Shown here one piece after another: positions 3,001-6,000 of a stretch of DNA of 21,095 bases. The DNA is from a virus. Its lineage: Duplodnaviria; Heunggongvirae; Uroviricota; Caudoviricetes. Each line of letters opens with the position of its first letter. Positions within the stretch are counted from its first letter, which is position 1. The position numbers were made by a program. The DNA lies in IMG/VR virus record IMGVR_UViG_2534681832_000043. One strand, 5' to 3'.

Positions 3001-6000
3001 CAACGGACTTTCTCAGCAGGAAATTGCCGACATTCTGAAACTCTACCCGAACGCGTTTAACGCCGCCTAACGGAGACTGAAAATGAACATCGAAAAAAGC
3101 AGATTAATTTCTGAGGCCGCCCCTCATCTGAACGCCTCTCTGGGCACAATTAACGGTAATGAATTTGCCGCAATTGTTCCGGTTATTCCTGGTCATATCG
3201 GTGGGCGTGAAACCAATATTGTTAGCGCAAAAGCGTTACACAAAGCGTTGGGCGTGGGAAAAGACTTCTCTACATGGATCACTGATCGCATCTCTGAATA
3301 TGACTTCACCATTGGGCACGATTACTCAGTCCATAAAACAATTTCCCCAAATTTGGGGAAAAGCCCGAATGGCACGGCTTACAGCAAGATTAAGCACTCT
3401 GGCAGACCCGGCAAAGACTATCTGTTAAGTGTCGGAATGGCGAAAGAACTGGCAATGATCGAACGCAATGATCAGGGTCGCGCTATCCGCCGTTATTTCA
3501 TCCAGTGCGAGGAAGAATTACAGCGTAGCGTTCCTGAAATCGCCGCCCGCTATCTTCGCCAGCTAAAAGCCCGTATCAGTGCCGCAAACAACTTTAAGCC
3601 AATGTGCGATGCGCTGAATATGGCCCGTGCCGAGCAGGGGAAAACGACGCAGCAACACCACTACACAAACGAGAGCAATATGATTTCTCGTATCGTTCTT
3701 GGTGGGCTAACTGCTAAGCAGTGGGCGCGGATAAATGGCTATTCTGGCGAACCTCGCGACCATATGAACGCAGAACAACTTGAGCACCTCTCATATCTCG
3801 AAAGCACCAATATCACGTTAATTGATATGGGCATGGAATATGAGCAGCGCAAAGGAGAACTCACCCGCCTGTCGCAACGCTGGCTCGCTAAGCGTCTGGA
3901 GGTGGTCCATGTTTAAGCCGACAGGAACACCACAACCTCAAAAACGCTACAAGGATGCCCACGGAGCACTCGTTACTGTCGAAAGCGTGTCTCACAACCG
4001 AGTGACGTTTTATCGCGACGGGTATCAATCGCCATGCGTACAACCGCTGGCGCGCTTCATGAAGGAGTTCGCGGAGGTTAACAAATGCTAACCGTCCAGA
4101 AGAAGATATTTTCACTGGCTGGTATGTCGCCAAAATCCAGCAATATGACAGCAAAGTCTGGCATTAATACAGCAGATACAAGCAAAGTTTATCATTTTCT
4201 GGTGGTGGGAGCGGATGCCTTAACTATGTCAGAAATTACGGTCGATGGTGTTAGCGTTGAGAAGGTCGGCGGCTGCGCCAGAGAATTTCTGGTCGTAGAT
4301 GGCTTTCTCTGCTCGCGTAGTGACTCCACAAAAACCTTCGTCCACACGCGCGACGTTAACGAAATGAGCGCGATGTATTGTGCATCTGGTGCTTCCAATA
4401 GTGAGTTTTCGGAGTCCATAAAAAAGAGCTTGCCGTTATGCGGCAACACGGTTTATGGTTATAAGGCACCTCATAAAACGGGTGCCGGGATTGGCCTCCC
4501 GCTGACAATCGAGGCGATACATGACGCGCCAGCGTCTTTTTTTGTATCGGCGCACACGCACACCTTATCAATGGTGGGCTGTATGGGGCTACCTTCGGGT
4601 AGGCTGGTTTCCTTGATTGCCAGTAAGGCCAACTCCGTACAGTCCACCGCCAGCAAGATTGGTCTCTTGGGCGGTGGCTATAAACCATCAATCAAGGAGG
4701 CTGCCACATGCTGGCTACTACCCCTACCCAAAAACCGCAATTTATCTGGATTATCGCCGCAGTTCGCCGCGATTGCCCGACAATTACCGCCAAAATTCAT
4801 CATATTGCTGCCGAGTCTGAACGCGATGCTCGCCGTTCTCTGGTGCGCGATCACGTCTGCTTTTTTGCTGGTCGTATCCGCATGGAGGTGGCACATGATT
4901 AAAACCTACGATGTGCATATGGACCCCCTCGAACGCACAAGCCAGATCATCACACTGACAGAAGTGATTAATGACATTCTGGTGAGCAACTCTCCCTCAC
5001 GAGACGAAAAACTGAAGGCGTTACTCGCGATATTGGATCTCGCCGTTCGTGACGTTCATTTCCTGCTGGAAGGTGGCGAAATGCCAGTAAAAACGGGGGC
5101 AACCAATGAATAACTCAATTAATACCCCTCGCCTTACGTCCGCACTTCAATTAATCGAGCAAGCAGCGGCTGTCCTGGTTGCTGTCAGTCTTTCGGCTGA
5201 AGAAATGGACGCTGCTGATGTCGTGGATGCGATTAAAGCGTGCTCATCTTTGGTTAACGATGCCCGTGCCGAGCTGGTAATTCTTGGGGGTGAAAAATGA
5301 ATATCAACTTAATTTATCGTCATCCGTGTGAGCTGGAAATTGAATCATTGCTGGGGCGTGAAGAGCCATATCCAGACACATTCACTCCCGCAGATTGCGC
5401 GACTGAACGGCTTACCAGAGCGCGCACAGGTCTGGTTCATGTGATGAATGAGATTGTTCCCTCGGTGGGAGGGGAACAGGCGACAGTAATCAATAGCTGG
5501 CTACAAAAAGTTACCTCCCTGATAGATATCGGTTTAATCGATGTGGAGAGTGCGAAATGACCAACATCCAGCTCATTGAAGCGCAATGTCGCATCGAACA
5601 GGTTCAGACTGTTTTAGGGTTCTGGCTTGAAGGGGCCAGCCCCAGCAACAGAGACAAGTTAATGATTGGCGCGGTTATGTCACTGCTCAATGGCGTACCA
5701 GAAGCTATTCAGGAAGCGGACGAATTGTTGGGCAAATATGAGTTACAGAATCATTCAGGCGAGGCGAAACATGAATAATTTCTTAACTTTCCATGCAGAA
5801 GCAACGCCTGACGGCGTAAACATCATGTACCGCAGCAACGATGGCATGACAGAACGCGTTGAGGCCGTCTCATATATTGATGCCGTAAATCGTCTGGATG
5901 CCGGGGATTATGACGATAAACCAGATGAAGGTATGTCAATACATCTCGCTATAGCCGATGGCGGTAACCAGGGATATTTCGATTACACATCACAGCATAA

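Follow-up and report, generated by a model that had tools for sequence, protein, structure and literature searches.

The principle of RNA-based immunity was established for the phages P1/P7 and P4 in the 1990s. In P1 and P4, the immunity RNA (C4 or CI) is processed by RNase P. Here we describe a locus of the same kind in the IMG/VR virus record IMGVR_UViG_2534681832_000043, a stretch of 21,095 nucleotides that we call the window; all positions below refer to it. Within the window, an initial annotation had flagged 4092-4707, upstream of a primase operon, as a possible leader of RNA-based immunity or attenuation with a layout analogous to that of P4. We conclude, with a probability of about 85%, that this stretch controls immunity in an EcCIMP1-like phage-inducible chromosomal island (PICI) and that the full P4/P1-type model applies to it. 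The kind of system is already known. What is new is the anatomy of this copy, the four cassette types among related islands and the statistics of the open reading frame (ORF) that covers it.

Several described systems are close. In P4, the gene eta is coupled to an upstream gene and is translated only from an upstream late promoter, and its translation prevents termination and causes read-through (PMC10111431, citing Forti et al. 1999). The Rfam models for the C4 and isrK RNAs also match several Gram-negative PICIs (PMC10111431), and some Stx-phage records already annotate both RNAs. In the Salmonella prophage Gifsy-1, IsrK is a homologue of P4 seqA, and the RNA in the C4 position, STnc1160, is processed from read-through transcripts; Hfq binding by IsrK and trans-activation of the read-through transcript are known for Gifsy-1 only (PMC4825925). 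EcCIMP1 is induced and specifically transduced by Kapi1, a relative of P22, and its description notes a conserved 'Ash family protein' without mention of an RNA cassette (PMC11773190).

Two RNA families in the control region

The whole window was scanned with Rfam and four matches exceeded the curated cut-offs. Two of them lay within the flagged stretch, both on the + strand: a leader RNA of the isrK/seqA type and an antisense RNA of the C4/CI type. A c4-a1b1 match of 16 bits was below its cut-off and was excluded from the evidence. The control region contained the following features, where a' and b' are the segments of the C4 RNA that are complementary to the target boxes.

4430-4459, + strand: candidate constitutive promoter (-35 TTGCCG at 4430-4435, 18-nt spacer, -10 TATGGT at 4454-4459)
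4466-4542, + strand: isrK/seqA-type leader RNA (Rfam RF01394, 65 bits against a cut-off of 50, E = 4e-12)
4491-4497, + strand: box a1, TTGGCCT, in a leader hairpin loop, complementary to a'
4506-4514, + strand: box b1, CAATCGAGG, complementary to b' with one G-U pair
4523-4543, + strand: intrinsic terminator, a GACGC-GCCA-GCGTC stem-loop plus T7
4567-4654, + strand: C4/CI-type antisense RNA (Rfam RF01695, 79.2 bits against a cut-off of 45, E = 2e-14)
4644-4677, + strand: alternative hairpin, in which CCACCGCC (4644-4651, the 3' strand of the C4 closing stem) pairs with GGCGGTGG (4670-4677)
4659-4701, + strand: target equivalent to P4 seqC, consisting of a2 plus b2
4659-4665, + strand: box a2, TTGGTCT, which pairs with a' through one G-U
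4689-4701, + strand: box b2, CAATCAAGGAGGC, which pairs with b' and covers the Shine-Dalgarno sequence AAGGAGG (4694-4700)
4708-4902, + strand: kil/icd-like gene of 64 amino acids, the first gene translated from the leader transcript

The RF01695 match was full length (model positions 1-87). The RNA has a long closing stem, a UUCG hairpin at 4589-4602 and a second hairpin whose loop is b' (GTTTCCTTGATTG, 4607-4619), with a single-stranded a' (AGGCCAA) at 4626-4632 and a 3' tail GCCA at 4649-4652. Its minimum free energy fold was the family consensus, at -42.4 kcal/mol (z = -4.17), and none of 200 shuffles folded as well. The opposite strand of the same segment gave z = -1.23, so the structure is strand-specific. 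Across 26 diverse members, island variants included, RNAalifold returned the three-helix structure, and 15 of the 25 pairs in it showed compensatory double changes.

The acceptor-like C4 stem followed by GCCA gives a hint toward processing by RNase P. We surveyed the wider family with C4 loci taken from one genome-collection scan and one viral-contig scan, which yielded 187 loci with 116 distinct a'/b' combinations. An NCCA tail was present at 29 of 116 loci, where stem ends are imprecisely defined, and its conservation across the C4 family was not established. The alternative hairpin holds box a2 in its loop. Its equivalent in P4 is built from other bases, CTATCGCC/GGCGATAG, around P4's own a2, and a2 lay 5' of the downstream arm in all 58 scorable loci of the family.

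The leader consists of two 5' hairpins, with a1 in the loop of the second, then b1 and then the intrinsic terminator. The promoter aligned base for base with that of P4 (TTGCCT, 18 nt, TATAGT, 6 nt, then the start of the seqA match), and by this alignment transcription would start at G4466, 6 nt past the -10 element TATGGT. The 60 nt upstream of the leader aligned with P4, and a P1-like phage had equal promoter spacing. Among the near-identical E. coli islands that we use as relatives, none of the 87 sites in 4403-4489, which holds the promoter and the 5' part of the leader, was variable. Only one locus (L001) among about 240 fetched C4 loci had the upstream DNA of the leader in common with the window; therefore, the sequence upstream of the leader is specific to this island family. 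A simple scan for sigma-70 sites flagged a single site, 4257-4286, which was at chance level, and no consensus promoter was found in 2250-4100.

Comparison with P4, P1/P7 and Gifsy-1

When P4 itself was scanned with Rfam, the C4 model fell on the CI region (8420-8507, - strand, 74.9 bits) and the isrK model on seqA (8615-8692, - strand, 60.8 bits). A P1-like phage has the same isrK and C4 pair just upstream of icd. Because the same two families fall on P4 CI and seqA and on the P1-like phage, the resemblance to P4 (PLE-seqA-CI-seqC-kil/eta), and also to P1/P7 c4-icd, is one of homology. The kil/icd-like protein matched the NCBIfam model phage_ICD_like with 71.7 bits against a cut-off of 25. 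It was 44% identical to the 65-aa P4 Kil (E = 4e-11) and 27% identical to Icd of the P1-like phage.

The likeness to P4 extends to the order of the elements and to the geometry of the promoter. In both, a seqC-like b2 lies over the Shine-Dalgarno sequence of Kil or its homologue, a long Phage_ASH ORF starts upstream of the promoter and spans the RNAs, and the operon ends in an alpha-like primase with Zn-ribbon and Toprim domains. The N-terminal 335 residues of the window's primase were 33% identical to P4 alpha, whereas its C-terminus is of the DUF5906 type. There were other differences. The spacer between terminator and C4 RNA is 24 nt in the window and about 107 nt in P4. The long ORF of the window is out of the kil/icd frame and merges with the next gene, whereas P4 kil is nested in the eta frame. 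The late zone of the window carries P22-type genes. As the loop and box sequences differ, the two elements are expected to be heteroimmune.

The closest match at the sequence level was the immI region of P1/P7: window positions 4449-4749 were 86% identical to the P1-like phage. The C4 scaffold and a' were identical between the two, and within C4 only b' differed. The logic of a1/b1 plus a2/b2 is also the same, as is the position of Icd as the first translated gene. The differences from P1/P7 immI were the b' loop and the b1 and b2 boxes, an antA/B antirepressor upstream of the cassette, and a controlled operon that encodes replication functions instead of Ant. With Gifsy-1 IsrK/STnc1160 (PMC4825925), the window shares the leader family, the intrinsic terminator, which is partly read through there, and a C4-position RNA that comes next. 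In Gifsy-1, however, IsrK activates translation in trans and thereby leads to the antiterminator AntQ, and no such genes lie downstream in the window.

Complementarity between the C4 RNA and the target boxes

In the window, a' and b' were each complementary to one upstream and one downstream box. The pairing of b' with b2 comprised 10 nt of Watson-Crick pairs, or 13 nt when G-U pairs were counted, and the predicted duplex had -19.6 kcal/mol. We then measured complementarity across the 116 variants as the longest Watson-Crick match of a loop segment to its own flanks compared with the flanks of other loci, and scored matches of at least 7 nt.

b' against the upstream flank: 70% at the own locus, 3% at other loci
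b' against the downstream flank: 75% at the own locus, 4% at other loci
a' against the upstream flank: 90% at the own locus, 2% at other loci
a' against the downstream flank: 86% at the own locus, 1% at other loci

The boxes and the loops co-vary across these variants. The initial annotation is confirmed in part. Its hairpin plus T7 tract at 4523..4543 is the terminator of the leader, its 8-bp GC-rich hairpin at 4644..4677 is the alternative hairpin described above, and its strong ribosome-binding site at 4708 corresponds to AAGGAGG at 4694-4700 with an ATG at 4708. The UUCG-tetraloop hairpin exists as well, although it had been placed at 4579-4592, 10 nt away from its true position of 4589-4602. 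A covariance-model search with Rfam and a search for complementarity like that among seqA, seqB and seqC of P4 had been named as checks; the former gave both RNA families above their curated cut-offs and the latter gave the four boxes. The idea of a P4-like immunity or attenuation leader is supported by the Rfam families, the co-varying boxes, the kil/icd homologue and the alpha-like primase.

The same complementarity bears on another possible role of the leader. As a member of the isrK family, the short RNA 4466-4542 might act as an activating switch, which opens the ribosome-binding site in trans or sponges C4 through a1 and b1. The short IsrK is a trans-activator in Salmonella (Gifsy-1), and its homology to P4 seqA was noted in the same study (PMC4825925). 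When the fold of 4640-4720 is predicted, the Shine-Dalgarno region comes to pair with the a2 region in cis. Complementarity to C4 is also as great for boxes a1 and b1 as for a2 and b2, which makes titration physically plausible. However, the strongest and most extensive pairing was that of C4 b' with b2 over the Shine-Dalgarno sequence, and the homologous RNA in P4 and P1 is a repressor (PMC10111431). We consider such a switch rather unlikely as an alternative. It does not exclude repression by C4, and is more a complement to it than a rival.

Cassette types among near-identical islands

Variation among the relatives was concentrated in the segments that determine pairing. The proportion of variable sites was 58% in the a1/b1 boxes, 50% in C4 and 53% in the region of a2, b2 and the Shine-Dalgarno sequence, compared with 3% in the icd-like gene. 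Four cassette types could be distinguished among the variants, each with boxes that tracked its loops.

Window type: b' CCTTGATTG, target CAATCAAGG
L245/EcCIMP1 type: b' CCTTGTACG, target GTACAAGG
L256 type: b' CCTTCAGAG, target TCTGAAGG
L250 type: b' CCATTCGA, target TCGAATGG

The a' segments behaved in the same way: AGGCCAA goes with the targets TTGGCCT/TTGGTCT, CTGCGAA with TTCGCAG and ACGCCAA with TTGGCGT. In three types, the RNA and the boxes matched solely within their own type, at both sites. For b':b2 and a':a1, matches across types were short. The a':a2 and b':b1 pairings of the window type each include a G-U pair, and matrices of exact matches fail to separate this type from the others. 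Loops and boxes together show the pattern expected of a swappable immunity-specificity cassette, of which E. coli has no fewer than four mutually non-cognate types with identical flanking sequence.

The three other types contained an extra 38-nt segment with TATAAT between the terminator and C4, which the window lacks. It was carried by L245, L252, L255, L248, L256, L250, L254 and L258, and the insertion point corresponds to 4566/4567 of the window. It may provide a second promoter that serves the antisense RNA alone. A further 1-nt insertion elsewhere brings the added length to 39 nt, and the long ORF thereby stays in frame.

These data also bear on the possibility that the island is decaying and that its cassette is now inactive, with no regulatory role. 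An IS3-type insertion lies in the P22 gp20-like gene of the island, and some relatives have a frameshifted antA or an interrupted long ORF. Nevertheless, the window has all elements of the cassette in intact and cognate form, no relative departs from it in the promoter and 5' leader, the cassette region was present in several hundred complete E. coli genomes, and the near-identical EcCIMP1 is experimentally inducible and transducible (PMC11773190). A dead cassette is therefore improbable.

The long open reading frame over the cassette

The control region is covered by a long ORF, which has its own start signals.

4073-4087, + strand: start signals of the long ORF (GGAGG at 4073-4077, 7-nt spacer, ATG at 4085)
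4085-5113, + strand: long ORF of 342 codons, named 'ash family protein' by the Prokaryotic Genome Annotation Pipeline (PGAP)

Along its length lie the promoter, both RNAs and the target boxes. It then runs through the icd-like gene in a different frame, and its 3' end shares the reading frame of the gene at 4895-5113. The start codon overlaps the stop codon of the DUF4222 gene, TAA (ATGCTAA), an arrangement that points to translational coupling. In the relatives L252, L248 and L249, the overlap was remodelled to ATGA and the ATG was retained.

The frame is open far beyond chance. There were no stops in the long-ORF frame within 4085-4707, compared with 8 and 14 in the two other sense frames, and only 2 of 5000 dinucleotide shuffles left the frame stop-free. 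The ORF was intact in seven of ten relatives compared, though three of the four cassette types are 39 nt longer, and in EcCIMP1 no stop occurred across the 289 codons read. In the wider C4 family, 85 of 116 loci (73%) had a stop-free sense frame across the 230-nt RNA region. The corresponding values were 23% for shuffles and 22% on the antisense strand, and the median spanning ORF had 202 codons. In P4, the equivalent ORF (8812-8168, 214 aa), which ends with Kil, is eta.

We found no constraint on the encoded amino acids. Variable sites were distributed over the three codon positions as 21:11:19 in 4085-4453 and as 37:33:34 in 4454-4707, with no excess at third positions. In 4085-4453, pN/pS was 0.51 in the long-ORF frame and 0.55-0.56 in two other frames. 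For comparison, the neighbouring DUF4222 gene had variable sites in a ratio of 1:2:8 and a pN/pS of 0.08. The first 123 residues had homologues only in close E. coli and Salmonella relatives, with very variable lengths, and no protein family was recognised there. For 4085-4430, no protein family, RNA family or frame-specific constraint was found.

Pfam PF10554 (Phage_ASH) matched the ORF with 41.9-50.5 bits against a cut-off of 26, and it also matched P4 Eta at residues 37-161. In the window, the Pfam and PHROG matches were confined to residues ~118-219 (Phage_ASH at 124-208/219), which are encoded by the DNA of the leader, C4 and the boxes. No purifying selection on the Phage_ASH amino acids was detected, and the substitutions track RNA pairing and box complementarity. 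Phage_ASH is thus the RNA region read as protein. The predicted proteins of the relatives end at many points and partly read the leader in another frame. PGAP labels for the locus vary by genome, from an intact 'ash family protein' of 342-355 aa to a pseudogene or a frameshifted Icd.

It follows that a plain protein-coding gene, an 'Ash family' or Bro-network regulator with only incidental RNA-family matches, is highly improbable: PGAP does annotate such proteins here, PF10554 and several PHROG 'transcriptional regulator' families do match, and the open frame with its good ribosome-binding site would suit a gene, whereas the lack of a third-position excess, a pN/pS in 4085-4453 about equal to that of two other frames, matches restricted to isrK, C4 and boxes where changes follow RNA pairing, C-terminal sequences that differ between relatives through frameshifts, and inconsistent PGAP calls all argue against it.

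The initial annotation had stated that the stretch has no convincing protein frame. This holds in that codon-level constraint is absent, yet the frame is kept open and has a good ribosome-binding site. Codon-level conservation among homologues, which it had named as evidence that would overturn the RNA interpretation, was looked for in the long-ORF frame and was not found. It had named translation across 4085-4700 in the same way. Since the cassette sits inside an ORF equivalent to eta, such translation would be no refutation of the RNA mechanism; RNA function and translation are not alternatives here.

We conclude that ORF 4085-5113 is the equivalent of P4 eta. As far as substitution patterns and stop counts can tell, it is very likely translated, with selection on translation itself and not on the protein product. 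A stricter version of this idea is that the long ORF over the cassette is kept only as a track for ribosomes, with selection limited to the start signals and the absence of stops. We put this forward tentatively, with slightly less than even odds.

Proposed mechanism

By analogy with P4 and P1, a weak constitutive promoter (-10 at 4454-4459) would start transcription at about 4466. Most transcripts would end at the terminator 4523-4543 and give a short seqA/IsrK-like RNA that bears a1 and b1. Read-through transcripts would contain the C4/CI-like RNA 4567-4654, which would accumulate after excision, probably by RNase P recognising the tRNA-acceptor-like stem and the GCCA tail. The a' and b' segments of C4 would then pair with a2 and b2 on leader transcripts. 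Because b2 covers the Shine-Dalgarno sequence of kil/icd, translation of this gene would be blocked. The 5' part of the gene (~100 nt) contains much C and little G, with C/G ratios of 2.0-2.25 in the 78-nt windows that start at 4680 and 4720, which is compatible with a candidate Rho-loading region when untranslated. The untranslated C-rich RNA would thus permit Rho-dependent termination, and the genes up to the primase (7073-9427) would stay silent in the quiescent island.

On induction, transcription would come from the upstream alpA-antA-DUF4222 operon. Ribosomes coupled from DUF4222 would translate 4085-5113 through the promoter, the RNA genes and the boxes. This translation would prevent termination and make the induced transcripts insensitive to immunity, as reported for P4 eta. 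Of this model, computation shows the RNA families and their structure, the co-varying complementarity, the position of b2 on the ribosome-binding site, the Kil homology and the open but unconstrained frame, whereas the transcription start, RNase P processing, the Rho step and translation of the ORF are inferred.

Several observations weigh against this model. No more than 8 of 12 promoter positions fit the sigma-70 consensus, and the simple scan missed the site; for this reason we treat the start site and the promoter role as predictions from the P4 alignment. The stem of the terminator is just 5 bp long, and the isrK segment taken by itself folded no better than shuffles (z = -1.41). As the window cassette lacks the 38-nt TATAAT segment, its supply of C4 would depend wholly on terminator read-through. 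The long ORF was interrupted in three of ten relatives, by a nonsense change in one case and by T-run indels in two, and the island may therefore be able to do without its translation; unlike P4 eta, it is also out of frame with kil/icd (starts at 4085 and 4708). Finally, the pattern used to collect the C4 loci fixed parts of both hairpin stems, and the sample therefore represents one subclass of C4 RNAs.

Identity and layout of the island

The window is DNA of Escherichia coli, and 3800-5400 was 97-99% identical to many E. coli chromosomes. EcCIMP1 had 96-98% nucleotide identity to the window, limited to the aligned stretches 2629-4545, 4602-7910 and 10765-12634, and the DUF4222 and Icd-like proteins of the two islands were identical. 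The surrounding element is, judged from its sequence, an EcCIMP1-like PICI of E. coli. The gene order of the window agrees with the four-zone layout of Gram-negative PICIs (PMC10111431).

Integration zone: integrase, int-alpA RNA and AlpA-type helix-turn-helix protein
Bro zone: AntA/B antirepressor, DUF4222 and the 'Ash' ORF with the immunity RNAs
Replication zone: primase-helicase with Zn-ribbon, Toprim and DUF5906 domains (primase 7073-9427)
Late zone: captured P22-type virion and ejection genes DUF2824/gp14, gp7 and gp20, within 11342-17314
11342-11803: DUF2824/gp14-like gene
11797-12474: gp7 gene
12474-13586: gp20-like gene, split by an IS3-type element

The zone order is common to the window island and EcCIMP1 (PMC11773190), and the Bro zone, the replication zone and the start of the late zone are near-identical. 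The two islands differ in several respects. The window island is integrated beside yicC, whereas EcCIMP1 lies at tRNA-Thr in MP1, and their integrases differ too. EcCIMP1 carries the GAAA-loop cassette type with the 38-nt insert, whereas the window island has another type. The gp20-like gene of EcCIMP1 is uninterrupted, whereas the window copy is broken by the IS3-type element. No sid, delta or psu was found among the window ORFs by Pfam and PHROG scans. With none of these genes and with late genes of P22 type, the island is not a P4-like satellite in the strict sense.

Several further features were observed in the window. The int-alpA RNA (1269-1335, + strand, 60.6 bits against a cut-off of 35.8) lies directly 3' of the integrase gene. 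The element that breaks the gp20-like ejection gene, which is intact in EcCIMP1, is an IS3-family insertion sequence (13393-14606, - strand), and an Rfam ALIL frameshift pseudoknot (14209-14325, 121.5 bits) lies inside it. A 701-aa ORF in the late zone had no Pfam or NCBIfam match and occupies the place of the lytic transglycosylase-domain gene of EcCIMP1. An Abi_2 (abortive-infection-like) gene at 18648-19610 (+ strand), at the accessory end of the island, is possible anti-phage cargo. In three RefSeq genomes (NZ_CM173857, NZ_CP029747 and NZ_CP041996), one of the two hypothetical proteins listed for 3800-5400 appears instead as a 'nicotinic acetylcholine receptor subunit beta'. The label is evidently an annotation error that has spread, and the gene concerned is probably that of 72 aa at 4895-5113.

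A relic of a P22-type terminase gene

Upstream of the promoter, antisense to the operon of the island, there was a fragment of a phage packaging gene.

4233-4339, - strand: relic of a P22-type small-terminase gene (terS, gene 3), 107 nt, 87-88% identical to terS of P22 and P22-like prophages

The homology sets in precisely at the P22 pac 22-mer, which is annotated at positions 4-25 of AF527608 and corresponds to window 4318-4339 (16/22 identical). A search of the window for the pac 22-mer with at most three mismatches gave no match, the homologous site having six mismatches. In our reading, 4233-4339 is left over from recombination, and the chance that it still has a function is small.

Such a function would be directed toward a P22-like helper, with the segment serving as a pac site through which the helper terminase packages the island or, if transcribed from upstream, as antisense to the helper's terS mRNA. 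The coincidence with the annotated pac 22-mer, the P22-type gp14, gp7 and gp20 genes of the island, perfect matches of at least 33 nt to P22 gene 3 that persist in the relic, and the specific transduction of EcCIMP1 by a P22 relative through a packaging signal that is unknown (PMC11773190) all fit this idea. On the other side, the pac 22-mer is the least P22-like part of the segment (13-16/22 identical, compared with 76-80/85 for the remainder), and the relic is as variable as its flanks. A search of 5,426 complete E. coli genomes and of the phage collection gave no terS closer than 88%. The terS of the known helper Kapi1 is a different one, of 142 aa, and lacks nucleotide similarity to the island; Kapi1 and the island have only the gp14/gp7 region in common (~81% nucleotide identity). 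Because the Kapi1 terS is of a different type and only that region is shared, we downgraded the idea of a pac mimic and consider it very unlikely.

Implications

The known principle of RNA immunity in P1/P7 and P4 is unchanged by these findings. For EcCIMP1-like PICIs, which are abundant and poorly annotated, the cassette probably explains why the replication operon is silent. The results also call for a correction of annotations: calls of an 'Ash family protein', a pseudogene or a frameshifted gene at such loci mark an RNA immunity cassette that lies in a probably translated, unconstrained frame.

If the long ORF is indeed kept only as a ribosome track, this role would be general to C4/CI loci beyond P4 eta and would let transcripts from upstream escape immunity. 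In the lineage of the window, the track would then have slipped out of the kil/icd frame, so that it overlaps the whole of icd and ends in the next gene. The four cassette types predict that co-circulating islands, together with P1-, Stx- and P22-associated phages bearing this RNA family, fall into heteroimmunity groups, which are directly testable in the EcCIMP1/Kapi1 system.

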